64,000 nucleotides of DNA from a virus. Lineage: Duplodnaviria; Heunggongvirae; Uroviricota; Caudoviricetes. This document shows, piece by piece, positions 38-64,000 of this stretch. The notes beneath the pieces were generated by a model, which saw nothing but the letters and a program-made list of their open reading frames with translations, had not been told where the DNA came from and searched no databases. Location of the stretch: IMG/VR virus record IMGVR_UViG_2795385890_000001. One strand, written 5' to 3'. The stretch's first letter is position 1. Every line of letters begins with the position of its first letter. A program made the position numbers and the translations under genes.

Positions 38-300
38 TAGGACCGTCATCTTCCGGCGGCTGCTCACCTTCACCCGTGGCTAGCCAACTCGCTGGCACGC
101 CGCAGGCCAACGCCCAAGCGTTGACGACGATCTTCTTCGGCACCGTCCGTCCGCTCTCGCAATTGCCAACCACCGACCGGCCGACTCCCATGAGTTCGGC
201 TAGTTGGTGCTGATCTAGTTGCGCCTCCTCGCGTGCGATCCGTAAGCGGTGTCGCAGGCGGCTCGGGGGGATATTTCCCGATTCGAATGCAGCAGTCATA
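1..300 (-). CDS. XRE-family helix-turn-helix repressor-like protein (C-terminus runs off the window, antisense to the tRNA end)
   Basis: Minus-strand ATG at 300-298 gives MTAAFESGNIPPSRLRHRLRIAREEAQLDQHQLAELMGVGRSVVGNCESGRTVPKK..., a typical XRE/Cro-CI HTH. No stop before position 1, so it is absent from the ORF track. Confidence 0.5.
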
Positions 301-301
301 T

Positions 302-326
302 TGCGCATGGTATGCGCGTACGCGCA
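302..326. promoter_or_regulatory. Operator-like palindromes (TGCGCATGGTATGCGCGTACGCGCA) in the divergent promoter region
   Basis: Perfect 14-bp palindrome TGCGCGTACGCGCA plus inverted GCGCAT/ATGCGC half-sites between the divergent HTH genes. Confidence 0.45.
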
Positions 327-425
327 CGGCCGCAAGTGGGCATAACTGCAACCATCCGCAAACCATGCTTACTTGCTAGCTAAACCCTAAATGGTTCCTA
401 TCTGCACAAATCTCAGACAAGGCAC

Positions 426-695
426 TTGCGTGCAGTTTGCGAATATGCGCAAGATAGGCGCATGCCCGCACGCCCCGATGAGTCGAGCACCACCGCCGAC
501 GAGATCACCGTCAGCAAGGCCGCCACCTTGTATGACGTCTCTAAACGGACTCTCCAGGCACTCGCCGTGTCCGGCCGCATCCCTGCACGGTTGGTCGGCA
601 AGACCTACCTGCTCGACCACCAGGCAGTCCGCCTATACGCACAGGCGCGCCAGGCCACCCGCGACCTCAACGACTACGCCCAGGCCGCGTCATGA
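426..695 (+). CDS. Excisionase/MerR-like HTH_17 DNA-binding protein (Xis- or Cro-like)
   Basis: ITVSKAATLYDVSKRTLQALAVSGRIPARLVGKTYLL matches the excisionase-family winged helix. Transcribed divergently from the XRE gene. Alternative start at 462. Confidence 0.55.
   Translation: MRAVCEYAQDRRMPARPDESSTTADEITVSKAATLYDVSKRTLQALAVSGRIPARLVGKTYLLDHQAVRLYAQARQATRDLNDYAQAAS
444..465. promoter_or_regulatory. Second operator-like inverted repeat ATGCGC-N8-GCGCAT
   Basis: TATGCGCAAGATAGGCGCATGC shares the ATGCGC half-site with the 302-326 palindromes and lies at the 5' end of the excisionase-like gene. Confidence 0.4.
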
Positions 696-4602: not shown

Positions 4603-4853
4603 ACGACCCCGTCGCACGCCACAACCAACTGGTGAGCAAGAACATCGAGATCGCCACGAGCAAGTTGTCTCCCATGGAGCGGCTCCGGAAGCAAGCAGCC
4701 GCCAATTCCAACACCCTCGGGTACGCCGTCTTCCTGGGACTGCAACGACAGGCCAACACCTACGCCGGGGCAGTGCCCGCAGACGAAGTCCAGCGTCGGC
4801 GCCGCCGGAACCGCGCGGCCCGCAAGGCGCGCCGTAGGAACCGCGCGTCATGA
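4599..4853 (+). CDS. Hypothetical protein (basic C-terminus)
   Basis: MNDPVARHNQLVSKNIEIATSK... in frame with track ORF 4353..4853; ATGA overlap with exonuclease stop. Confidence 0.45.
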   Translation: MNDPVARHNQLVSKNIEIATSKLSPMERLRKQAAANSNTLGYAVFLGLQRQANTYAGAVPADEVQRRRRRNRAARKARRRNRAS

Positions 4854-5635
4854 GGAAGGAATGCACCCGGCCCAACTGCACCGAGTTGGTACAGGCCCGC
4901 GGACTGTGCCCGACTCACTACGCCAAGTACCGGCGCCTCGCTGTCTCCGACGGCCGCTGGAGCCCGCTGCACGTACCAGCGGACGACACCCGCGCCCGCG
5001 TCCTCGCCCTCATGGCGGCGGGGGTCGGCATATCCCGGATCGCGGAACTTGCCGGAGTTACCCACCGGGCCATCGACTTCCTGACCCGGGAAGACCAGCG
5101 CCTGGTGAAACGAACCACCCGCGCCGCAATCCTCGCTATCCCGGTGCCCGTGTGTCCGTTTGGGCCACAGATGGCCGCTGGCGCGCGGATAGATGCCACC
5201 GGTTCACGCCGCCGCGTTCTCGCCCTCTCCGCTGTCGGATGGTCGCAACAGCACCTCTCGGTACGCCTCGGGCTACACCCCGGCCGCCTGTCCAAGGTCG
5301 CAACCGGCGCCATCAAGAAGGTCACGGTGTCCCGCGCCCGAGAGATCGACGCCCTGTACCGCGAGTTGCAGGAAGTACCAGGTCCTTCCAATGTCGCGCG
5401 GCGCATCGCCACGCAGAGGGGATGGCCGCCGCCGGTGGCATGGGACGACACCGAAATCGACGACCCCGCCGCAACGGCCCACATCCGCGGAGGACAGGTC
5501 GTATGGATCGACCTCTACCGCGACTACCTCGACCTCGGATTGTCCAACGACCAGATAGCCGAACGCATGGGGGTCACAACGGAATCCGTCGAAGCACGGC
5601 TCAAGCGGCTACGCAAGAAGGGCATAGCGGCATGA
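4850..5635 (+). CDS. DNA-binding protein with N-terminal Cys-rich motif and C-terminal sigma-70 region-4-like HTH
   Basis: CTRPNCTELVQARGLCPTHY at the N-terminus; C-terminal LSNDQIAERMGVTTESVEARLKRLRKKG is HTH-like. Confidence 0.45.
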   Translation: MRKECTRPNCTELVQARGLCPTHYAKYRRLAVSDGRWSPLHVPADDTRARVLALMAAGVGISRIAELAGVTHRAIDFLTREDQRLVKRTTRAAILAIPVPVCPFGPQMAAGARIDATGSRRRVLALSAVGWSQQHLSVRLGLHPGRLSKVATGAIKKVTVSRAREIDALYRELQEVPGPSNVARRIATQRGWPPPVAWDDTEIDDPAATAHIRGGQVVWIDLYRDYLDLGLSNDQIAERMGVTTESVEARLKRLRKKGIAA

Positions 5636-5844
5636 CAGCACGCAAGAAGGCCAAGCCGCTACCGGGTGCCATAACCACCCAGAAACGCAACGACGGCGCC
5701 GGTTGGAGCTGGCGCTGGCTCTCCAACAAGGGCAACGTGCACTTTCACCCGGGACCGTTCCCAACCACCATCGCTGCGCGCGCCGCAGCCCGTAAGTGGG
5801 TACGAGACAAAGTGCTTCGCGAGGCCACTGGTGACGACGAATGA
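5632..5844 (+). CDS. Hypothetical small basic protein
   Basis: MTARKKAKPLPGAITTQKRNDGAGWSWRW...; ATGA coupling at both ends. Confidence 0.4.
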   Translation: MTARKKAKPLPGAITTQKRNDGAGWSWRWLSNKGNVHFHPGPFPTTIAARAAARKWVRDKVLREATGDDE

Positions 5845-6026
5845 GCGCGCGGCGACGCTGCCCAGTGTGCGGTGCAACCGTGTTCCGCACACCCAAGGGC
5901 AACGTCCTCGCACATCACGACCCACATGGCATCGCGCGCTGCCCCATGTCATACGAGAAGTTCGACCTGTGCGAGCCGTGGACCCCACGCGTCAAACACC
6001 TTTGGGAACGGCGCGCCGCAGCGTGA
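5841..6026 (+). CDS. Small zinc-ribbon protein
   Basis: CPVCGATVFRTPKGNVLAHHDPHGIARCP has a CxxC...HxxxC arrangement. Confidence 0.4.
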   Translation: MSARRRCPVCGATVFRTPKGNVLAHHDPHGIARCPMSYEKFDLCEPWTPRVKHLWERRAAA

Positions 6027-6373
6027 CAACAGACGACATCTGGGCAGAGCCGTACATATCCGAGTGGAACGAAGACCTGACCCGTGAGCACGTCAAGGGC
6101 CGGTCAATGGGCTGGTGCGAGTGGTGTGGCAAGCAGCACGGGACTGACATGCACCACCGCCGCAATCGGTCACAGGGCGGCCAGTGGCACCCCGCCAACA
6201 TCGTGCACCTGTGCCGCGACTGCCACCAGTGGGTCACCACCAACCCGGCGGACGCCGAGGCCGTCGGACTCACCCTCACCCACGGCCAGGACCTCTACGA
6301 CACCCCCATAGCGCTGCCTATGCACGACATCTATCTGCACGACAACTACCTACCGAAGGGCCGCAACGCATGA
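6023..6373 (+). CDS. HNH endonuclease
   Basis: CEWCGK...HHRRNRSQGG...NIVHLCRDCH is an HNH/zinc-finger signature. GTG start overlaps the upstream stop (GTGA). Confidence 0.65.
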   Translation: MTTDDIWAEPYISEWNEDLTREHVKGRSMGWCEWCGKQHGTDMHHRRNRSQGGQWHPANIVHLCRDCHQWVTTNPADAEAVGLTLTHGQDLYDTPIALPMHDIYLHDNYLPKGRNA

Positions 6374-25202: not shown

Positions 25203-25504
25203 GCAGCGCAGGCGCACCGGTCCTATGCGGCTGCGGCCACTACACCCCGGACGTGGCCATGGTGTTGCAAGGCTACGGCTGGACGTGCCCCGGGTGCGGG
25301 CGCCGCTGGGTCAAACACCAGGGCCGCATCTGGTTCCTGGACCCAGGACAAGAGCTGCCCGTAACAGCCTGCCTCAAATGCGGCCAACAGATTGACGACG
25401 ACCAACGATGCATACCCGTCCTAACCGGGCCACCCGTGCCAAACGTCCTCGTACCCAACCACGACTACATCCACCTCTACTGCCTGATAGGAGTAACCCT
25501 GTGA
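25199..25504 (+). CDS. Zinc-ribbon protein
   Basis: CGCGHYTP...CPGCGRRW...CLKCGQQ; GTG start coupled to the upstream stop. Confidence 0.4.
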   Translation: MSSAGAPVLCGCGHYTPDVAMVLQGYGWTCPGCGRRWVKHQGRIWFLDPGQELPVTACLKCGQQIDDDQRCIPVLTGPPVPNVLVPNHDYIHLYCLIGVTL

Positions 25505-26538
25505 CGCAACGTGATCCGCACCGCTGCGCGTTCGGACACCGCTGCGTAAACCACGACTGGTCAACCGTCGTTGACGAAGATGACGCACCCTCCGGCCAAC
25601 TCATTGCCGACGGTGTGATCTGCGGCGGCTGCCTAACCCGCCTCCGGTACGCCGTCAACGGCCTACCCCGGGACTGGGACCGGCTCCACGAAGGCATCGG
25701 GGAACGCGTGTATGTCGACCGAGCACGCGTCACCATGACCTCCACCGCAGCCATCAACCTCAACACCCAACGCGACGCCCTCCAACGCGACATCGTCGAG
25801 ACCGCCGACCGGGCAGCGGAAATGGTGGAACACGCGATGAACCTGACCGGCAGGCAGCGTCACGGCCGCCAGGGCTTCACTGTCCACCAACGTCAGGTAG
25901 TCGCCCGCTCCGTCGCCGTGGTCAGCGAAAACCTGGACGTACTCCTCGCCCAGCCCGCCCAACCCATGCTCGTCTGGGGCCGAGTACCCGACGGCGACGA
26001 GGGCTGGCATCCCCAGCACGGACAACCCCGCCACCTCGTAGACCGCGACGGCGTCGACATCGCCCTCCAACTAATCGAGCTGTCCCGCAACGTCTACCAG
26101 GCCCTCGGACTACCCCGACTACGCCACCACTCCGCCATGCCCTGCCCCGCAGTAAAACGGGACGGCCAGCAGTGCGGCGCCTACACCGTCGGCCGCTGGG
26201 ACGGCACCAGCCAATACGACTGCACCACCTGCGGCCGAACATACGGCGAACGGGAATACCCCTGGCTCCAGCGCGGCGTCATCGACCTCATGCGCGAACT
26301 CGAAGAACGGGAGAAAAACATGCAACTACTCGACCAACTCAAACACCTACTAGCCGAGGCATACTGGCGCCTCGACGGCATCAACGACATGGTCCAGCGT
26401 GTCGCCGACGAGCCACTGCTGGACGAGGCGGGCGCCGGACGACTGGTCGTCGACAAGGTGACCACGATCCTCAACGACGGGCTGGTACCGCACCAGACAC
26501 CCGAGCAGCGGCAGACCACACCGTCGGGCGGCAACTGA
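25501..26538 (+). CDS. Hypothetical protein with N-terminal Cys/His cluster
   Basis: 345-aa ORF, GTG-coupled; HRCAFGHRCVNHDW...CGGCLTRL; C-terminal coiled-coil. Confidence 0.45.
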   Translation: MTQRDPHRCAFGHRCVNHDWSTVVDEDDAPSGQLIADGVICGGCLTRLRYAVNGLPRDWDRLHEGIGERVYVDRARVTMTSTAAINLNTQRDALQRDIVETADRAAEMVEHAMNLTGRQRHGRQGFTVHQRQVVARSVAVVSENLDVLLAQPAQPMLVWGRVPDGDEGWHPQHGQPRHLVDRDGVDIALQLIELSRNVYQALGLPRLRHHSAMPCPAVKRDGQQCGAYTVGRWDGTSQYDCTTCGRTYGEREYPWLQRGVIDLMRELEEREKNMQLLDQLKHLLAEAYWRLDGINDMVQRVADEPLLDEAGAGRLVVDKVTTILNDGLVPHQTPEQRQTTPSGGN

Positions 26539-27754: not shown

Positions 27755-28095
27755 TCTGGGAACTATGGGCAACCCCGTCCGGCCAGATCTTCTGGCAGCT
27801 CGACAACTGGGGTGGCTTCTACAAATGCGAACCACCCACCGGCGGCCGCGAGACGGTGGATACGCTGCCCGCCGACGCCCGGCCACTGATCAACGACGGC
27901 AGGTGGATCACCGGCGTCATGGACGCCGCCGAAGACGAGGCCCAACGCCGCATCCTGGAGCCCGACTGGCCAACCCAACGTGTAGAACGCCCCTACGAGA
28001 AAGCCCAGCGCCTGCGGTTTGAGCGGTACATGGCAGAGGTCAAGAGCATGACCGCAGCGGCAATCGCCACACCCCAGAATGGCGGAACATCATGA
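27751..28095 (+). CDS. Hypothetical protein
   Basis: ATGA-coupled ORF. Confidence 0.4.
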   Translation: MIWELWATPSGQIFWQLDNWGGFYKCEPPTGGRETVDTLPADARPLINDGRWITGVMDAAEDEAQRRILEPDWPTQRVERPYEKAQRLRFERYMAEVKSMTAAAIATPQNGGTS

Positions 28096-28556
28096 CCGGC
28101 ATCGCCTTCGTTGACGTGACCCTGGCATGGAAACGCATCGAGGATCGTTGGCACAAGGGCCGCTGGTTGTGGGTCGCCCACCACCGCGACGACACCGGTG
28201 GGACGTACACCCTGTTGCCGCGGACAGCGGCGGCGGATACAAGCCCCCGGAGGACCCGGAATGCCCCGAGGGCCAGCACCATCCACCTACAGCTCCGGCA
28301 AGTCATGGCACAGGCGAAACTGGAGGTAACAGCGCTGGTAGCGGGTCTGGCGGTAGCGGTGGGTCCTCGGCGAGTGGAGGGGCTGGCACCGGACGGTGAT
28401 GGTCGCGGCTACCGAGCGGCTATACAGCCAAGCCCCAATCCTGTTGCCGCACCGCTATACCGCGGTATAGCTTCGTTTTCAGACAACAAAACAACGGACG
28501 ACGTGAACAGGATGCAGGTCGGTTATCTCGGGGTACGCCCCCGTAGTTCAAGTTAG
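28092..28556 (+). CDS. Hypothetical protein (only the N-terminal ~70 aa look protein-like; true stop uncertain)
   Basis: ATGA-coupled start. Distal half is low-complexity and overlaps the palindrome/terminator at 28455-28480. Confidence 0.25.
   Translation: MTGIAFVDVTLAWKRIEDRWHKGRWLWVAHHRDDTGGTYTLLPRTAAADTSPRRTRNAPRASTIHLQLRQVMAQAKLEVTALVAGLAVAVGPRRVEGLAPDGDGRGYRAAIQPSPNPVAAPLYRGIASFSDNKTTDDVNRMQVGYLGVRPRSSS
28455..28470. terminator. 16-bp perfect palindrome CTATACCGCGGTATAG followed by TTCGTTTTC (terminator-like; related to the palindrome at 31514)
   Basis: AT-containing perfect palindrome in GC-rich DNA, with a T-run 3' of it, immediately upstream of the tRNA-like repeat array. Confidence 0.4.
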
Positions 28557-28615
28557 AACGCCCCGAGCCAAGCGGGGAAATGGAGCCAAACCCGCCCAGC
28601 GCCAACCACGTTCAC
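28503..28615 (+). ncRNA. Degenerate Y-RNA-like repeat unit 0 (conserved 5'/3' helix elements present, tRNA-like arms decayed)
   Basis: Starts with the conserved block GTGAACAGGATGCAGGTCGGTTATC and ends with CACGTTCAC, which pairs with the 5' GTGAAC. Internal arms are not canonical. Confidence 0.3.
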
Positions 28616-28654
28616 GTCGTACCCCAGACCACAACTACATAGACACCAGATGGT

Positions 28655-28780
28655 GCGAGCAGGACGCAGGTCGGTTACCACTTCTAATGGAGAGGTCGCG
28701 GGTTCGAGTCCCGCCAGCCAGCCCCCGGCTGTAGCTCAGTTGGCAGAGCGCTAAACCCCGGTCAGCACACACACGTTCGC
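28655..28780 (+). ncRNA. Y-RNA-like repeat unit 1 with tRNA-like domain (T-arm GCGGGTTCGAGTCCCGC, acceptor hairpin CAGCCAG/CCGGCTG, D-arm GCTCAGTTGGCAGAGC)
   Basis: Permuted tRNA-like order, no anticodon arm. Outer helix GCGAGC/GTTCGC, inner helix CAGGTCGG/CCGGTCAG. Confidence 0.6.
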
Positions 28781-28817
28781 CCCATCACCCAACACAACTC
28801 CATACACGCATCGGGGT

Positions 28818-28953
28818 GCGACCAGGACGCATGGTCGGTTATCGCATTCGGAGCGGGAGGTCGCAGGTTCAAATCCTGCCCCCGGCATCACATGTCCGGG
28901 GTAGCTCAGCCTGGCAGAGCGCCTAAAACACCGGTCGGCACACACACGGTCGC
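28818..28953 (+). ncRNA. Y-RNA-like repeat unit 2 (T-arm GCAGGTTCAAATCCTGC, acceptor hairpin CCCCGGC/TCCGGGG, D-arm GCTCAGCCTGGCAGAGC)
   Basis: Outer helix GCGACC/GGTCGC compensates relative to unit 1. Confidence 0.6.
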
Positions 28954-28987
28954 GCCCCCTGACACAACTCCATAGACGCAGCACGGT

Positions 28988-29115
28988 GTGAACAGGACGT
29001 CAGTCGGTTAACTCCTTTCACGAGAGAGACGCGGGTTCGAATCCCGTCGACCACGAAAGTGGTTGTAGCTCAGTGGCCTAGAGCGCTTAACCCCGGCAGA
29101 CACCCACACGCTCAC
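28988..29115 (+). ncRNA. Y-RNA-like repeat unit 3 (T-arm GCGGGTTCGAATCCCGT, acceptor hairpin CGACCAC-gaaa-GTGGTTG, D-arm GCTCAGTGGCCTAGAGC)
   Basis: Perfect 7-bp closed acceptor hairpin; outer helix GTGAAC/GCTCAC. Confidence 0.6.
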
Positions 29116-29154
29116 ACCGCCTCAAACGCCAGCAGACGCACGCGCGCAGGCGGT

Positions 29155-29285
29155 GTGGACAGGACGCAGGGCGGTTACCAAAACAGTCAGGTGTGGGTTC
29201 GAGCCCCACCACCTCGATCGCGGGGTGTAGCCCAATTGGTAGAGGCAATTGTCCACATACGCCGGTCAGCACCCCACACGCCCAC
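29155..29285 (+). ncRNA. Y-RNA-like repeat unit 4 (T-arm GTGGGTTCGAGCCCCAC, acceptor hairpin CACCTCG-atcg-CGGGGTG, weakened D-arm)
   Basis: Outer helix GTGGAC/GCCCAC; D-arm TAGCCCAATTGGTAGAGGC is partly degenerate. Confidence 0.5.
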
Positions 29286-29329
29286 ACCACCTACGCGCAC
29301 GCACGACAGACAACCCGATGTGAACAGGA

Positions 29330-29434
29330 CGCTCGGTCGGTTATCACTCAATTGGTTAATGCAGGTTCAAGCCCTGTCGCCCGCACCCAGTGCGGGTGTA
29401 AAAGCGAAATCCCGGTCAGCACAAACACGTTCAC
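29330..29434 (+). ncRNA. Y-RNA-like repeat unit 5 (T-arm GCAGGTTCAAGCCCTGT, acceptor hairpin CGCCCGC/GCGGGTG, D-arm deleted)
   Basis: Outer helix GTGAAC/GTTCAC is perfect; D-arm replaced by TAAAAGCGAAAT. Confidence 0.45.
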
Positions 29435-29464
29435 ATCACCCGCCCAATAGCCCTCGCGGGTGGC

Positions 29465-29537
29465 ACGAGCAGGATCGCAGTCGGTTACCCCACCCCTCGC
29501 AAGGATGACGAACCCCGGCGGCCCTTCACACGTTCGC
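29465..29537 (+). ncRNA. Degenerate terminal repeat remnant (conserved CGAGCAGGATCGCAGTCGGTTACC ... CACACGTTCGCG only)
   Basis: Has the conserved 5' and 3' helix blocks but no T-arm or D-arm. Lies directly before the RBS of the Ro60 gene. Confidence 0.25.
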
Positions 29538-29569
29538 GCCGCCCGCACCCTCTAACAAGGAGATGCACG

Positions 29570-31285
29570 GTGGACGTTCTCACCACTATCGGAACCCGTA
29601 AGACGCCGCAGTCGCAGCAGGCGGACCCCCGGCAGGTGAAGAACTCCGCCGGTGGCTACACCTTCACCATCGACGACGAGGCCCTGCTGCACCGCTTCCT
29701 CACCCTCGGCACCGACGGCGGCACCTACTACACCAACGCCCCCGACCTCACCAAGGACACAGCGGCCGTCGTGCTCCGCGCAGCAGCCGCCGACCCAGTC
29801 CGCCTCGTCCAGCACATCGTCGAGGTGTCCGTGGACGGACGCGCACCCCGGCAGAACCCGGCCCTGTTCGCCCTCGCCATCGCCGCCGCAGCAGAGGACG
29901 TCGACGGCCGCCGCGCCGCAGCAGCCGCCCTGCCCACGGTCGCCCGCACCGGCACTCAGCTCTACACGTTCGTCAAGTACATGGAGCAGTTCCGCGGGTG
30001 GGGCCGCGCCATGCAGCGGGCCGTCGGCGGCTGGTACCTCGACAAGCCCGTCGACCGCCTCGCCTACCAGCTGGTCAAGTACCGGCAGCGCGAAGGCTGG
30101 ATGCACCGGGACCTCCTGCGCCTGTCTGGCCCCGCCACGGCGGACCCGGCCCGCCGCCTCGCCTTCAACTGGGCAGTCGGCAAGGGCCTGAACGACTACA
30201 TCGGCAAGATCCGGCCCCTCACCGCCGAGCAGTTGAAGGCAGGGGAGCGCAACGCCTCCCGGCCCAAGCTGCCGAATGTCGAGCTGTCGGTTGACCACCC
30301 CCTGGCGATCATCGAGGACTTCGAGGACGCCCAGCGCGCCAGCCAACCCAAGGAATGGGTGAGCATCATTCGACGTGGCAACGGCCTTCCGTGGGAAGCG
30401 TTGCCAGACGTCGCGCTCAACTTCACCGCTGTGTGGGAAGCGCTGATTGAGCATGGGCTGCCGCAGACGGCTTTGATGCGCCAACTGCCTCGTCTGACCC
30501 GGCACGGCGTCCTGCATGGTGAATATCTGGATCGTGTCGTTGCTCAGCTCCAGGACGCCGACCGTCTACGCAAGGGCCGCGTCCACCCGGTCAACGTCCT
30601 GATCGCGCAGCGCACCTACGCGTCCGGGCATTCGGCGCGCGGCGACTCCACCTGGACGCCGGAACGCAAGGTCGTGGATGCCCTGGACGCCGCGTTCTAC
30701 AACGCCTACGGAGCGGTAGAGCCGTCGGGCAAGCGCACCCTGCTGGCGCTGGACGTGTCCGGCTCCATGGGCGCCGCGATCTCAGGTATGCCGCTGACAT
30801 GCCGCGAGGCCGCAGCCGCACTCGCACTCGTCACCACCAACGTCGAGCCCAACCACGAGGTCGTCGGCTTCACCGACGGCCGACAGGCCGCGCGCTCGGG
30901 CTACGGCTACCGGTCCCAGCACCACATCACCCCGCTGGACATCACACCGCGCCGCCGTCTCGACGACGTCTGCCGGTACACCGCCGGACTCAGCTTCGGC
31001 GCTACCGACTGCGCACTCCCCATGCTGTGGGCACAGCAGTCCAAGCGCGAGTTCGACACGTTCGTGGTCATCACCGACAACGAGACCTGGTTCGGCGACG
31101 TCCACCCGCACCAGGCGCTCCGCGACTACCGCAACAAGATGGGCATCAACGCCCGCCTGATCGTTGTCGGCATGACGGCAACCCGCTTCACCATCGCCGA
31201 CCCCGCCGACCCCGGCCAGCTCGACGTATCCGGTTTCGACTCAGCTGTCCCGCAGCTGATCTCGGACTTCTCAGCCGGACTGTAG
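29570..31285 (+). CDS. rsr: Ro60-like TROVE-domain protein with C-terminal vWA/MIDAS domain (Rsr ortholog)
   Basis: N-terminus KNSAGGYTFTIDDEALLHRFLTLGTDGGTYYTNAPDLTKDTAAVVLR...GRAPRQNPALFALAIAAA is the Ro60/Rsr TROVE signature. C-terminus LALDVSGSM is a MIDAS DxSxS motif of vWA. RBS AAGGAG before the GTG start. Confidence 0.8.
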   Translation: MDVLTTIGTRKTPQSQQADPRQVKNSAGGYTFTIDDEALLHRFLTLGTDGGTYYTNAPDLTKDTAAVVLRAAAADPVRLVQHIVEVSVDGRAPRQNPALFALAIAAAAEDVDGRRAAAAALPTVARTGTQLYTFVKYMEQFRGWGRAMQRAVGGWYLDKPVDRLAYQLVKYRQREGWMHRDLLRLSGPATADPARRLAFNWAVGKGLNDYIGKIRPLTAEQLKAGERNASRPKLPNVELSVDHPLAIIEDFEDAQRASQPKEWVSIIRRGNGLPWEALPDVALNFTAVWEALIEHGLPQTALMRQLPRLTRHGVLHGEYLDRVVAQLQDADRLRKGRVHPVNVLIAQRTYASGHSARGDSTWTPERKVVDALDAAFYNAYGAVEPSGKRTLLALDVSGSMGAAISGMPLTCREAAAALALVTTNVEPNHEVVGFTDGRQAARSGYGYRSQHHITPLDITPRRRLDDVCRYTAGLSFGATDCALPMLWAQQSKREFDTFVVITDNETWFGDVHPHQALRDYRNKMGINARLIVVGMTATRFTIADPADPGQLDVSGFDSAVPQLISDFSAGL

Positions 31286-31291
31286 GAACGC

Positions 31292-31519
31292 GTGGACCCA
31301 AGGGCACAGCAGGCGCGGGAGCATCATCGGCTATCAGGTGATGCCTCCCGCGTCGGCGCATTGCACCGCGACCAGCGCGATGCCATAGTGCGGAACCTCT
31401 GGGATACGGAGCGTGAGAAGTGGACCTACGCCACCCTTGCCGCGGCGGTCGAATGCTCACCACAACTCATCCAGAAAATCATCGACGGCCGCACTGGAAC
31501 CACTCGACATAGCGTATAG
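31292..31519 (+). CDS. Small putative HTH protein
   Basis: TYATLAAAVECSPQLIQKIIDGRTG is helix-turn-helix-like. Its stop overlaps the 31514 palindrome. Confidence 0.35.
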   Translation: MDPRAQQAREHHRLSGDASRVGALHRDQRDAIVRNLWDTEREKWTYATLAAAVECSPQLIQKIIDGRTGTTRHSV

Positions 31520-31529
31520 CGCGCTATAC
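31514..31529. promoter_or_regulatory. 16-bp perfect palindrome GTATAGCGCGCTATAC in an AT-rich intergenic island (related to 28455-28470)
   Basis: Perfect palindrome with the same TATA(C/G)CGCG(G/C)TATA architecture as the one upstream of the RNA array, followed by ATTAGAAATAT. Confidence 0.4.
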
Positions 31530-31538
31530 ATTAGAAAT

Positions 31539-31790
31539 ATGCGTAAGGCGTCGAAAATCAAATGCTCACAAACTGACTCGATTATCGCCCCCGCCGTCGC
31601 TGACTCGGATTTCTGGTCTTATGTCGTCACGCTCCCTAGCCGCGACGCACGCGGGCCAGCCGTGAAGTACAACGGCTGCCGCCGCTCTACGACCGGCCGG
31701 TGGAATCTGCGAGATCTCGTCACGGGCTCCCCGGTCGGCTGGGGCTATGCCGACGACGAGGTTGTGGTGCTGGAGGTGCTCAGCCGATAA
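31539..31790 (+). CDS. Hypothetical protein
   Basis: ATG after the AT-rich spacer; MRKASKIKCSQTDSIIAPAV... Confidence 0.35.
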   Translation: MRKASKIKCSQTDSIIAPAVADSDFWSYVVTLPSRDARGPAVKYNGCRRSTTGRWNLRDLVTGSPVGWGYADDEVVVLEVLSR

Positions 31791-31834: not shown

Positions 31835-32164
31835 ATGACCACCACGTACACCGTTACTCGTGAACAGCTCGACGCCTTCCAGGTGACCCTCGACGACCTC
31901 GATGAGGAGGTTAGTGCCCAGGTTCGCGATGACTACAGCGGCCGAGGCATGTACGGCAACACATGCATCGGCGTCGTCATGGGTGACCTTCGATTCCTGC
32001 CCGCGATCACCGCCGAGTTGGCGTACATCGTTGGTGAACTCGCGTCCAGCGACGACGTCATCGCACTGACCGAGTTCCTGTGGGAATTGCCCACCGAGAC
32101 CGACAGCATGGGCCGCAGCACCATCGTCTACTGGCCCAACGTCCGACTCGCCACGGACTACTGA
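31835..32164 (+). CDS. Hypothetical acidic protein
   Basis: RBS AAGGAGACC; MTTTYTVTREQLDAFQVTLDDL... Confidence 0.45.
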   Translation: MTTTYTVTREQLDAFQVTLDDLDEEVSAQVRDDYSGRGMYGNTCIGVVMGDLRFLPAITAELAYIVGELASSDDVIALTEFLWELPTETDSMGRSTIVYWPNVRLATDY

Positions 32165-33331: not shown

Positions 33332-34002
33332 GGAACCCGGAGGCCGATGTCGTCGACGCGATAGCCGCGCTTGTCGACAAACAGCTCCAACAAGAGGCGT
33401 CGGGCTACGACCACAACATCAACCAGGACTCCTGCCCGAAGTGCGGCGGCCCCTGGCACGGCCTCGTACGCGGCTCCTGCCCGGGCGCGACCGGCATACG
33501 GGGAAGTGACCCGGAGCGATTACCAGCGCCTCTCCTTGCCCAGCTGACAATTCCTGCCACGCCGCGGCCCTGGACTGAGCAGCGTCACTCGTACCCCGTC
33601 ACTCCCAGCGACGACGAAACGCTCCTATCAGAGTTCATTCTGGTCATCGCTGAGCCGATGCCCATCGAGTTCCGGGCAGTTGAGACGCCCGAGGAGTACC
33701 GGCTACTTCCGAGCCGCCACTGGACAGTCGACATCAGGTGTGAGTCGTCCTACGCCCATGCAACAGACATGCTCTGGCTTCGGATACGGTTCGGCGACCA
33801 ATATCTGAGGCACATCGTTCCGTACGCAGCTGTGTACGGTGCGCGTCCTGGCCTACGCCTGCTCCATACCTCGATTCCGAACCTGGCGGACAGCTACGTG
33901 GAGTTGTTCACCCACCCGACCTACGGGGTTGTCGCATGGTTCCGTATCAAAGGCGGTGCCTTTCAACTGCGTCTACGCTTCGCAGGGTTGGGGCATCCGT
34001 GA
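33328..34002 (+). CDS. Hypothetical protein with CPKCGG zinc-ribbon motif
   Basis: GTG-coupled start; in frame with track ORF 33154..34002. Confidence 0.45.
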   Translation: MRNPEADVVDAIAALVDKQLQQEASGYDHNINQDSCPKCGGPWHGLVRGSCPGATGIRGSDPERLPAPLLAQLTIPATPRPWTEQRHSYPVTPSDDETLLSEFILVIAEPMPIEFRAVETPEEYRLLPSRHWTVDIRCESSYAHATDMLWLRIRFGDQYLRHIVPYAAVYGARPGLRLLHTSIPNLADSYVELFTHPTYGVVAWFRIKGGAFQLRLRFAGLGHP

Positions 34003-36734: not shown

Positions 36735-36815
36735 CCGACACACCCGTCTGACCTGCATACGGGGATGCGCCCGTATCACGTGTTATACATATGTCGTTGG
36801 CACCGCTGTGCCTTG

Positions 36816-36852
36816 AACGCCCCCGGACCTCACCCCGGGGGCGTTTCGTTTA
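36816..36852 (+). terminator. Rho-independent terminator (AACGCCCCCGG-ACCTCA-CCGGGGGCGTT + TCGTTTAT)
   Basis: Perfect 11-bp GC stem, 6-nt loop and T-rich tail; ends the early/middle gene train. Confidence 0.6.
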
Positions 36853-61823: not shown

Positions 61824-64000
61824 TGCCTCGGTCAGTCGATCTGGTCCCGCAGAACTTCAAGACGGAATACGACCCGACCAACCAACTCGCCCAGGACCCG
61901 GCCCTCAAGAAGACGATCACCAACCTCGGCGACGTCCTCAAGCAGCTGCCGGTGATGATCCAGAAGGAGCTCCAGCGGCTCATCGACTCGCTGCTGGGAA
62001 TCGCCACCAACCCCATCCCCGAAATCATCGAGTGGCTGGACGAGCTGAAAAAGGGCATCGCCAACGTCCTGTCGTGGATCAAGCCTGGACTGCTGCCGCT
62101 TATCCCCCTGTCACAGATAGGCGAGTGGTTCCCGAACCTGCTCCTCAACGGCGGCTTCGACACCGACGCCGCGGTGGTCGACAACCCGGATTGGTTGTGG
62201 GACGGCACCATCGGCCGCACCAGCCCTTTGGGATCGGTCAAGGCCGTCATGGCAGGGACCGCAAAATACCTGCACTCCAACGCCATACCGGTGGCCAAGA
62301 AGCAGCACTTGGAACTGGAGGTATTCACCCGCTGGCAGGGCCTCACCGCCGGTGCTGGCACCAACCCCATCCGGCTGGTCGTCACCTCGTACCTGGCGGG
62401 CAACCCCGTCTCGTCGACAGTCGTTGCCCAGCACCAACCGTCGGCGGCCGACAGCAGCGGATGGGTGGAACTGCACGGCACCTACACCGTGCCCGACACC
62501 GGCGTCGACGAAGTCCGCACCACGCTCCTAGTGACCGGCGACGCCACCGCAGGCACCGTATGGTTCGACGACGCCGACACTTGGAAGACCGGAAAGCTCC
62601 CGCAGGACTACGTCCAGGATCTGGTCACCCAGCTGGAACAGTTCGGCACCGACATCGGCAACGCCTTGGAGGAGCTGGCACACAAGGTCGGACTGGACCG
62701 CTTCAAGGAGTTCTTCGACACCGTCGCCGGTCAGGTCAACGCCGAAATCGGCGACATCCAAAACCGTCTCGCGGCAATCACCGCTGACGGCAAGATCGAC
62801 GCCGCAGAGATCTTGGGCTTGCTCGGCCTAGGCAACATCCCGCTACTCCCGCAGACCAAGGTCACCGATCTCCCCGATCTCAACGCCCAGCTGAACCAGA
62901 TACGGGACATCTTCGCCGGGCTCGTTGTCACACCCATCAACTCGACCATCCAGGCAGTCAAGGACTGGTTCGGGCTGAGCAACAACAAGACTCAGAAGCT
63001 CACCGCTGGCGGGACACTGAACGCGGGCGACGTCGTCGGCAATTTCGACATGGGCCGGGTCAACGATCTGGTCAGCAACCTCGGCAACATGCTAACCGGG
63101 GTCAAAACCGGCGCCGACGGAACAGCCACGGGCACAACGGGAACCATCGGCGAGCAGATCAACCAGGCCAAGGACTCACTACTCTCGCTGCTCGGCCTGT
63201 CCCGCGATGCCCTCAAGAGCGCCATCGCGGCACAGACAACGCTCCAAGAGCAGGAAACCGAACAGAACACCGGCGGCGGCAACAGCTACAGCTTCACCTT
63301 CTCCGGTGCCGACGGCGCCGCGCTGAACTCGACAGACTGGACCACCGGACCCAACCCTGGCGATATCACCATCCGCGGGGACTCGGGGTACGCGGGCGTC
63401 AAGAACGGCAACCCAGACGGGTACTTCTTCGCCAGCCCGAACTACACCTACGCCACCGACGGCCAATCAGCCTCATTTGTGTTGGGCGACACACAGAACG
63501 GCAACTACTACTCCGGTGTCTACATCCGATGCGACTCGGGCCGCACCCAGGGCGCCTACTGCCTGGCCAAAGAGGGCGAAATCCGCATCGGCAAGTTCAC
63601 CCGCTCGGGCACCAGCTGGTCATTCAGCGCACCCCTGACCCTGCAAACCGGTCTCTCGGCGGTCAAGCAGGGCGCGCGCATCGAGATCCGCTGCTCCGGC
63701 ACCAACTACTTCGTCCGCGTCAACGGCCGCCAAATCCTCTCGGCCACCGACGCAGGCAACTCCATCAACATCGGTGCCGCATACCGGTATTCGATGTTCA
63801 GTGTGCAGCGGGCAAGTCCGTTCTTCACTTACGACTCCTACCGCATCGCCGCCTTCGCGATGTCCGACTACACCTCAGCGGGAGCGGGATTCTCGATGTC
63901 AAACTCGTGGAGCATCCGACGCGACAGCACCGCCGACGTCACCTACGGCCCCTATTCCTCCGGCGCATTCCCGTCCGGGTTCTTCACATTCAACGACTAC
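61823..64000 (+). CDS. Minor tail protein (large, 3'-partial; continues beyond the window)
   Basis: ATG shares a base with the upstream TAA. At least 726 codons open to the window end; Gly/Thr/Ser-rich beta-type C-terminal region typical of fibre/receptor-binding proteins. Confidence 0.55.
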   Translation, partial: MPRSVDLVPQNFKTEYDPTNQLAQDPALKKTITNLGDVLKQLPVMIQKELQRLIDSLLGIATNPIPEIIEWLDELKKGIANVLSWIKPGLLPLIPLSQIGEWFPNLLLNGGFDTDAAVVDNPDWLWDGTIGRTSPLGSVKAVMAGTAKYLHSNAIPVAKKQHLELEVFTRWQGLTAGAGTNPIRLVVTSYLAGNPVSSTVVAQHQPSAADSSGWVELHGTYTVPDTGVDEVRTTLLVTGDATAGTVWFDDADTWKTGKLPQDYVQDLVTQLEQFGTDIGNALEELAHKVGLDRFKEFFDTVAGQVNAEIGDIQNRLAAITADGKIDAAEILGLLGLGNIPLLPQTKVTDLPDLNAQLNQIRDIFAGLVVTPINSTIQAVKDWFGLSNNKTQKLTAGGTLNAGDVVGNFDMGRVNDLVSNLGNMLTGVKTGADGTATGTTGTIGEQINQAKDSLLSLLGLSRDALKSAIAAQTTLQEQETEQNTGGGNSYSFTFSGADGAALNSTDWTTGPNPGDITIRGDSGYAGVKNGNPDGYFFASPNYTYATDGQSASFVLGDTQNGNYYSGVYIRCDSGRTQGAYCLAKEGEIRIGKFTRSGTSWSFSAPLTLQTGLSAVKQGARIEIRCSGTNYFVRVNGRQILSATDAGNSINIGAAYRYSMFSVQRASPFFTYDSYRIAAFAMSDYTSAGAGFSMSNSWSIRRDSTADVTYGPYSSGAFPSGFFTFNDY

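Follow-up and report, generated by a model that had tools for sequence, protein, structure and literature searches.

The 64,000-nucleotide stretch analyzed here (IMG/VR virus record IMGVR_UViG_2795385890_000001; the whole stretch is referred to as the window) covers 64 kb at the left end of a Mycobacterium abscessus prophage of Cluster MabK, and within it two related perfect palindromes, P1 and P2, stand on either side of a module that comprises Y-RNA units, a gene for the Ro protein (Ro60/Rsr) and one small open reading frame (ORF). On balance we favor the view that P1 and P2 act as transcription signals, each at the head of one of two consecutive units read rightward, and not as the ends of a mobile cassette. 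P2 looks like one copy of a promoter-embedded operator family with at least six dyads in MabK genomes; this putative promoter-operator family is small and previously undescribed, it belongs to a clinically relevant prophage cluster, and its recurrence is non-random. The window begins at the exact left prophage end and is colinear with Mycobacterium phages prophiGD43A-5 and prophiT37-1, and a prophage from a public assembly (L180) is 99.98-100% identical to it on either side of a deletion of 1,812 bp.

The original prediction had described two 16-bp palindromes bracketing the Ro/Y-RNA module, and this description holds with one correction: P2 (GTATAGCGCGCTATAC, 31514-31529) is a perfect palindrome of 16 bp, and P1 is in fact one of 18 bp (GCTATACCGCGGTATAGC, 28454-28471), followed by TTCGTTTTC. 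The bracketing is literally true, in that P1 ends 23 nt before the first YrlA-like repeat copy (28495) and P2 starts in the last codons of the small ORF (31292-31519), whose TAG stop codon lies inside the left arm of P2; the surroundings of P2 are also low in G+C, as had been claimed (0.49 locally vs ~0.65 elsewhere). The architecture that the two share is atypical for the genome, TATA-N6-TATA occurring in the 64-kb window only at P1 and P2 and 0.00 times in 100 dinucleotide shuffles, and GTATAG has only three occurrences in the 64 kb. Perfect palindromes of at least 16 bp are in themselves not rare in the window (3 observed vs 1.74 expected, with 3 or more in 25% of shuffles); of 300 shuffles, 0.7% had two A/T-rich ones and 2% had a related pair. 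P1 and P2 agree at 12 of 16 positions with their half-sites swapped (CTATAC..GTATAG in P1, GTATAG..CTATAC in P2), and relative to each other they are neither direct nor mutually inverted repeats.

P2 and the GTATAG-N4-CTATAC family

P2 lies within a predicted promoter, and the elements of this promoter and of the unit behind it are as follows (aa, amino acids):

31504..31509, plus strand: -35 hexamer TCGACA of the P2 promoter, a sigma-70-like match that is kept in the orthologous promoters of relatives
31514..31529, unstranded: P2, operator-like dyad of the GTATAG-N4-CTATAC family that extends from the promoter spacer into the -10 box
31527..31532, plus strand: -10 hexamer TACATT, overlapping the right arm of P2 (17-nt spacer; 9 of 12 consensus matches)
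31539..31790, plus strand: ORF of 83 aa with a predicted leaderless start, its ATG 6 nt past the -10 box
31836..32164, plus strand: homologue of prophiGD43A-5 gene 55 with the Shine-Dalgarno sequence AGGAG

In mycobacteria a TANNNT -10 box lies 7-12 bp upstream of the start site, and leaderless mRNAs are abundant (PMC3898074). Promoters were scored as SigA-like when the -10 box fitted TANNNT and a -35-like hexamer lay 16-18 nt upstream; the P2 promoter (TCGACA-17-TACATT) has both features and is the sole sigma-70-like match in the interval from 27.5 to 32.5 kb, and the orthologous promoter of prophiGD43A-5 (TCGACA-17-TACAGT) is likewise the sole such match in the 7-kb scan of that genome. Between TACATT and the ATG at 31539 lies AGAAAT, with no Shine-Dalgarno sequence, and since the ATG follows the -10 box so closely the mRNA of the 83-aa ORF is probably leaderless; its start codon is called identically in eight public contigs. 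The 83-aa ORF itself had no match in Pfam, in PHROG or in a tblastn search of phage records.

In prophiGD43A-5 and prophiT37-1 gene 55 begins directly at the P2-type promoter; in the window the 83-aa ORF sits before the gene-55 homologue, which has gained the AGGAG ribosome-binding site. Homology between the window and prophiGD43A-5 stops at 31494, 20 bp ahead of P2, and resumes at 31931, and between these two points only an island of ~30 bp, TCGACATA(A/G)CGTATAG-N4-CTATACA, is common to both. The conservation of this island between unrelated flanks thus identifies P2 as a portable promoter module at a mosaic junction, and the overlap of P2 with the stop codon of the small ORF is a consequence of the recombination junction at 31494.

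P2 has counterparts elsewhere in MabK genomes. prophiGD43A-5 contains six GTATAG-N4-(C/G/T)TATAC sites, all of them fully intergenic in a genome in which 5.5% of 16-nt windows are fully intergenic (p ~3e-8 for all six by chance):

upstream of brnT, minus strand
upstream of an unannotated ORF of 112 aa with a signal peptide
upstream of gene 55
site D, upstream of gene 109, a small helix-turn-helix (HTH) gene
two sites in the right arm

At all six sites a -35-like hexamer lies 4-8 nt to the left and the -10 box starts within the right arm, the register is fixed, and in four of the six site classes (A-D) an ATG lies 6-7 nt past the -10 box. The flanks of paralogous sites are unrelated save for the -35 and -10 boxes. 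Orthologous copies of the six site classes were pulled from ~14 MabK-type genomes by their flanks alone, and the 16 distinct cores found in these copies differ only at positions 7-11, with no difference at any of the other 11 positions. Invariant half-sites with a tolerant center, at unrelated promoters, would be the signature of recognition by a dimeric protein. A search of 50,697 phage records with a 34-nt consensus of the P2-type promoter module gave matches in the two MabK phages alone, five in each; taken together, searches of IMG/VR (exact P1, exact P2 and degenerate P2) and of the phage records (P2-type module) returned sites only in MabK-type prophages or as isolated chance matches. 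A scan of genome contigs with GTATAGNGCNCTATAC gave at least 120 matches, mostly unrelated, with no Mycobacterium among the matches listed.

Dyads of similar appearance also occur elsewhere. Unrelated metagenomic viral contigs of 41-51% G+C carry two or three of them, e.g. cattatacaGTATAGGGCTCTATACgtcaagg and ttgacaaaGTATAGCGCACTATACagat, in promoter-like contexts:

L160, positions 951 and 3706
L147, position 7859
L175, positions 7334 and 10089
L179, positions 3153 and 6033

With the degenerate pattern, many of the matches listed from the genome collection are metagenome-assembled genomes of Christensenella/Christensenellaceae, perhaps representing a separate repeated element. The region 36773-36852 of the window, which lies in a large gap between genes, has a P2-like dyad of degenerate sequence, GTATCACGTGTTATAC, with ATATG after it. 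A very strong terminator (near 36845; stem ~36812-36844, then TTCGTTTAT) stands ~25 nt downstream of the dyad, and the region could represent a small RNA or a short transcription unit. In the right arm of prophiGD43A-5 (73200-73671; L004 33200-33671) gene 114, annotated on the minus strand, conflicts with a plus-strand ORF (L004 33258-33575) that has a P2-type promoter upstream and a strong terminator downstream (33592-33622, then TTCTTTTTCT), and gene 114 may have been assigned to the wrong strand.

P1 and the probable start of the Y-RNA/Ro unit

The elements at and around P1 are as follows:

28227..28230, unstranded: junction of the 1,812-bp deletion, from comparison with L180, with 4-bp microhomology
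28444..28449, plus strand: possible -35 hexamer TTGCCG of a putative Y-RNA/Ro promoter, 5 nt upstream of the 16-bp P1 core
28454..28471, unstranded: P1, identical in 15 of 15 MabK-type loci recovered by their flanks
28468..28473, plus strand: possible -10 hexamer TAGCTT (fits TANNNT), overlapping the right arm of P1 and aligned with TATAGT/TAGTTC of distant relatives
28472..28480, plus strand: T-rich tract TTCGTTTTC past the P1 hairpin, a terminator-like match together with the hairpin; the minus strand has no such tract

P1 is present in a single copy per genome, and its layout (TTGCCG-18-TAGCTT) is that of site F of prophiGD43A-5 (TTGCCT, 5 nt, 16-bp dyad, nTT); several relatives read TTGCAG at the -35 position. 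More distant comparison was possible with five related prophages (L181-L185), of which L181, L183 and L184 align with the window at ~75% identity over the YrlA array, the Ro gene and the small ORF. In the ~75%-identical prophages the GGTATAG of the right arm shows no variation; it reads TATAGT there, close to the consensus of a -10 box, at an equal distance from the first Y RNA. The left arm is GCATTACTGA, which is not complementary, so that there is no palindrome, and no T-tract follows. As the right arm is kept in relatives that lack the palindrome, conservation applies to this arm, and the full palindrome is a MabK-specific feature. From this comparison, P1 likely overlaps the promoter of the Y-RNA/Ro unit. 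The palindrome-free relatives have a different dyad, ATGCC-N7-GGCAT, after an A-tract and just upstream of the Y-RNA TATAGT (L181 3040-3056), which could be a minus-strand terminator or some other regulatory site.

In RNA, P1 would form a 7-bp stem with three G-C pairs and a 4-nt CGCG loop followed by UUCGUUUUC, which is terminator-like on the plus strand only. Its position agrees with such a role: in L180 and prophiGD43A-5 it lies shortly (55 nt) past the stop codon of a co-oriented gene, the intact 112-aa secreted-protein ORF, which is truncated in the window. The right arm of prophiGD43A-5 has a similar promoter-ORF-terminator layout with a clear terminator. P1 probably doubles, then, as a leaky terminator for transcription arriving from upstream. 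The suggestion in the original prediction that both palindromes are terminator or insulator hairpins is thus plausible for P1, weak as its hairpin is, and fails for P2, which has no U-tract on either strand and whose hairpin is absent from the minimum-free-energy fold.

The truncation of the upstream secreted-protein ORF, whose 5' end is gone, stems from the deletion; also lost were five minus-strand genes, including the brnT-type gene adjoining the sites, and two P2-type sites. The deletion created a chimeric ORF (28092-28556) in which the N-terminus of a gp48 homologue is fused out of frame and which crosses P1 into the first Y-RNA unit. The 112-aa ORF is unannotated in prophiGD43A-5 (25416-25754; L001 5375-5713) and has a signal-peptide-like N-terminal segment and a Gly/Ser-rich C-terminus; a P2-type, predicted leaderless promoter lies upstream of it and P1 downstream, and the window keeps only its 3' part (28231-28399).

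The Ro module, candidate binders and alternative explanations

Between P1 and P2 there are only the Y-RNA units, Ro and the 75-aa ORF:

28495..29545, plus strand: YrlA-like (Y RNA) array of ~7 units with tRNA-like domains, from sub-threshold Rfam matches, repeat families and ARAGORN
29570..31285, plus strand: Ro60/Rsr gene, 571 aa, an ORF with a same-length L180 gene of 100% identical DNA
31292..31519, plus strand: small ORF of 75 aa with a possible C-terminal HTH (HTH_31, E = 0.0013, under the Pfam cut-off) and its stop inside P2

Y RNAs adjoining rsr are already known, including in mycobacteriophages (PMC4201824). Rfam at its gathering thresholds gave no match anywhere in the window; the four YrlA matches in the array (E 2e-6 to 6e-3) all score below the gathering score, and the repeat families are spaced ~150-170 nt apart. 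One unit is called tRNA-Arg(tct) by ARAGORN, where the record of a relative annotates tRNA-Thr, and the number of units differs between the window and prophiGD43A-5 (overlapping BLAST segments). The L180 Ro gene has Pfam TROVE and vWA_Ro60 domains, and relatives annotate the gene as a 'Ro-like RNA binding protein'. The AlphaFold model of the 75-aa ORF (pLDDT 76) has one long and two short helices, and Foldseek gave for it only weak matches to HTH domains, all non-significant (E > 0.6).

The idea that P1 and P2 are paired operators through which the 75-aa protein autoregulates the Ro/Y-RNA module from both ends draws on the position of this ORF, which adjoins P2 and has its stop codon inside it, on the weak HTH_31 match and the HTH-like C-terminus of the model, and on the 12 of 16 positions common to P1 and P2. 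We nevertheless regard it as very unlikely. Homologues of the ORF with 70-72% identity lie beside Ro in the five viral contigs L181-L185 and after an RtcB gene in L201, and neither palindrome was found within ~6 kb of the homologues in L181-L185 (1 mismatch allowed) nor was either found near the L201 homologue, which disfavors the 75-aa protein as binder. P2-type sites stand, moreover, at five other, unrelated promoters; prophiGD43A-5 has an extra ORF between the small gene and its P2-type site; the overlap seen in the window stems from the junction at 31494; and the half-sites are oriented differently in P1 and P2. The operator hypothesis of the original prediction therefore survives in part: P2 is operator-like, yet it does not form a pair dedicated to the Ro module and is one of at least six promoter dyads across MabK. 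In L201, a prophage of Mycolicibacterium sp. A43C, the homologue (70% identity) directly follows the RtcB RNA-ligase gene with a 4-nt overlap, in the place of Ro (region 4790-6222). The 75-aa protein thus travels with RNA-repair genes (Ro or RtcB), a hint that its role may be in an RNA-repair module rather than as a generic regulator.

Other proteins were considered as binders of the dyad. Immunity in MabK is integration-dependent (PMC8092301, PMC9934374), and the repressor-cro intergenic region of the window (299-461) has repeated TGCGC/GCGCA dyads, including a 14-bp palindrome, TGCGCGTACGCGCA (313-326), and no P2 motif; these dyads differ from the P1/P2 motif and probably serve the integration-dependent immunity repressor as operators. 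The immunity repressor was rejected as the dyad binder on the ground that its own control region lacks the P2 motif. The BrnA antitoxin is also an unlikely binder, since the phage of the window has lost brnT and its neighbors yet keeps P2, and six promoters would be many for an antitoxin. For gp116, a TetR-like candidate, neither Pfam nor PHROG gave an HTH, and some of the MabK loci searched, but not others, gave a homologue, one key locus (L006) being incomplete. With low confidence, the best remaining candidate is gp109 of prophiGD43A-5, a 73-aa protein with PHROG matches to 'HTH DNA binding protein' (E = 4e-4) and 'transcriptional repressor' (E = 2e-3), whose own predicted leaderless promoter carries the dyad (site D); a search for gp109 homologues returned M. 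abscessus proteins only.

That P1 and P2 might be recombination sites that mobilize the Ro/Y-RNA module as a cassette was suggested by their flanking positions, and the break in homology with prophiGD43A-5 20 bp before P2, with P2 as a conserved island between unrelated flanks, could be taken in the same sense. This mosaic junction is, however, better explained by exchange at a shared promoter sequence. P1 stands at no homology breakpoint, all relatives being colinear through it (the nearest indel junction is 225 bp upstream and has 4-bp microhomology); the two sites form neither a direct nor an inverted repeat pair; no recombinase or transposase is encoded in the module, which is in the same place in all 14 MabK genomes; and neither a P1...P2-bounded segment in another context nor an empty site with a hybrid palindrome was found in IMG/VR (searched with exact P1, exact P2 and degenerate P2) or in the 50,697 phage records (searched with the P2-type module, not with P1). 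More distant Ro cassettes are without either site, no palindrome being found in L181-L185 or in the Cluster C1 phage LinStu. Mobilization is accordingly unsupported and in our judgment extremely improbable. A reading specific to Ro fails on the two points that the original prediction itself had named as decisive against it: the motif occurs elsewhere in the MabK genome, and homologous cassettes lack the palindromes; on this evidence the palindromes are not an intrinsic or conserved part of the Ro/Y-RNA module.

Two further explanations dispense with a dedicated regulator of P1 or of the whole family. P1 may serve purely as a Rho-independent terminator, ending transcription of the secreted-protein gene and insulating the Ro operon, and may resemble P2 by coincidence or because both overlap TATA-rich -10 regions; this is a real, though minority, possibility, given the TTCGTTTTC tract that follows the 7-bp stem and CGCG loop on just the transcribed strand, a position 55 nt past the upstream ORF stop in sister genomes, a T-tract like that of the strong terminator at ~36845 (TTCGTTTAT), and the joint absence of palindrome and T-tract in L181-L185. 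Yet the stem has only three G-C pairs and is weak, terminator-like matches are at the level expected from shuffles, the right arm is kept as a -10-like TATAGT in relatives that have no hairpin, and no other promoter candidate fits into the 23 nt before the array, so that a strong terminator here would leave the Ro operon untranscribed. Alternatively, the dyad may be a conserved variant of the core promoter (spacer and -10 box), disseminated along with accessory genes, or the site of a host factor. The screening of candidates gave no identified binder, the register with the -35 and -10 boxes is always fixed, and the similar dyads beside -35-like boxes in L179 and L160/L175 suggest that TATAC dyads arise easily around -10; RNA polymerase, on the other hand, needs no symmetric spacer, and the left half-site, entirely contained in the spacer, shows as little variation as the right one, unlike the center, a pattern typical of recognition by a dimer. 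We consider a core-promoter variant or host-factor site unlikely.

The preferred reading, in which P1 and P2 are transcription signals at the starts of two units, must itself be set against a number of observations that weigh against it. Transcription start sites and protein binding at P1 and P2 are predictions from sequence, promoter and terminator matches in the scans are no more numerous than expected from shuffles, and of the site classes all but A fail the strict sigma-70 scan and require the looser TANNNT rule. At P1, the invariance across 15 loci carries little weight, as the genomes are 90-100% identical there; the -10 candidate, TAGCTT or TATAGC, is poorer than the TATAGT of distant relatives; and the hairpin has ~-10 kcal/mol in context (z = -1.1 vs shuffles), compared with -21 to -23 kcal/mol for the clear terminators of the same genome at ~36845 and ~47242. 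P1 also stands outside the family consensus, CTATAC-CGCG-GTATAG differing from it at positions 1, 6, 11 and 16, of which 1, 6 and 16 are invariant in the family, and this mismatch makes it doubtful that a single protein would serve both P1 and P2. The window has only one P2-type site, P2 itself, and allowing up to 3 mismatches gives 4 copies where chance predicts 4.3; the remaining family members would either have been deleted from this phage or lie past position 64000. The gp109 gene is present in MabK contigs but falls outside the window, and phylogeny confounds the joint occurrence of gene and motif. Published descriptions of MabK prophages (Hatfull lab) mention no palindromes or operators for the cluster.

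If the two palindromes are nevertheless taken as unit starts, the following mechanism can be proposed. Transcripts arriving from upstream would fold P1 into its hairpin followed by UUCGUUUUC, probably a weak terminator of the secreted-protein 'moron', and the right arm of P1 would act as the conserved -10 region of the promoter for an operon of Y-RNA array, Ro and small ORF. The P2 promoter would then give a predicted leaderless mRNA for the 83-aa ORF and, after it, the gene-55 block. With the dyad in the same register at no fewer than five other accessory-gene promoters of sister genomes (brnT, the secreted protein, gp109 and two right-arm units), a dimeric protein on the invariant half-sites would be expected to block RNA polymerase at all promoters of the family. 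An extension of this scheme, which we offer as speculative and rather unlikely, is a second MabK circuit besides the immunity repressor, in which a gp109-like HTH protein would co-regulate accessory genes (the BrnT/BrnA toxin-antitoxin, the secreted protein, units by the polymorphic-toxin locus and the block after Ro) via the dyad in leaderless SigA promoters, and in which the half-site-swapped P1 would gate the Y-RNA/Ro operon as both a DNA operator and an RNA terminator.

Should the dyad be an operator, it would mark a small and recognizable accessory-gene regulon in a family of prophages whose host is a clinically important pathogen, it would provide a sequence handle for predicting co-regulated prophage genes, and the compact promoter-operator module might find new use as a genetic tool in mycobacteria. 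For Ro/Y-RNA biology the outcome is mainly negative: the palindromes mark probable unit starts and are silent on how Ro or the Y RNAs work.

Comparison with known systems

Among classical phage or bacterial operators overlapping core promoters are dyads with two 6-bp half-sites and a 4-bp center, which serve dimeric HTH repressors, an example being the mycobacterial LexA box TCGAAC-N4-GTTCGA. P2 resembles such classical operators in being a recurrent 16-bp dyad with 6-bp half-sites and a variable 4-bp center, placed between -35 and -10; it differs from them in that its half-sites match no operator that we can name, that four of the six P2 classes are predicted to be leaderless, and that its binder is only a candidate.

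Among mycobacteriophages the closest parallels are repeated sites with other distributions. Cluster O phages have a 17-bp palindromic repeat, 5'-TGTTCGGNNNCCGAACA, which, like the MabK motif, is a cluster-specific palindrome with invariant arms, a variable center and no known binder, in genomes with SigA-like promoters and leaderless mRNAs (the latter predicted in MabK); unlike the ~6 MabK sites, which are intergenic and in register with promoters, the Cluster O repeat has more than 30 copies, many of them in ORFs or at ORF 5' ends, and is not tied to promoters (PMC4351075). The stoperators of Cluster A and MabJ phages resemble the P2 family as multiple repressor sites across the genome of a temperate mycobacteriophage with at least one promoter overlap, but they are asymmetric, 13-14 bp long, oriented and far more numerous, whereas the P2 family consists of symmetric dyads (PMC9934374). 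Compared with the dyads of the repressor-cro region, the P2 family is a separate, second set of putative operator sites. Phages of the BPs type reportedly have operators of integration-dependent immunity.

As in bacterial rsr-Y RNA (YrlA) loci, the YrlA-like RNAs of the window lie directly upstream of Ro60 on the same strand (PMC4201824). The palindromes do not belong to such modules, LinStu and L181-L185 having Ro with Y RNAs and no palindromes of this type.

The organization of the MabK units can finally be compared with that of phage morons. These are promoter-gene-terminator units inserted between core genes, and the P2-type promoters likewise head small accessory units (brnTA, the secreted protein, the 83-aa ORF and a 105-aa ORF), at least one of which ends in a clear terminator while P1 would terminate another. 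Unlike morons, however, the MabK units have one conserved dyad in common, which suggests coordinated control and not a set of independent constitutive promoters.

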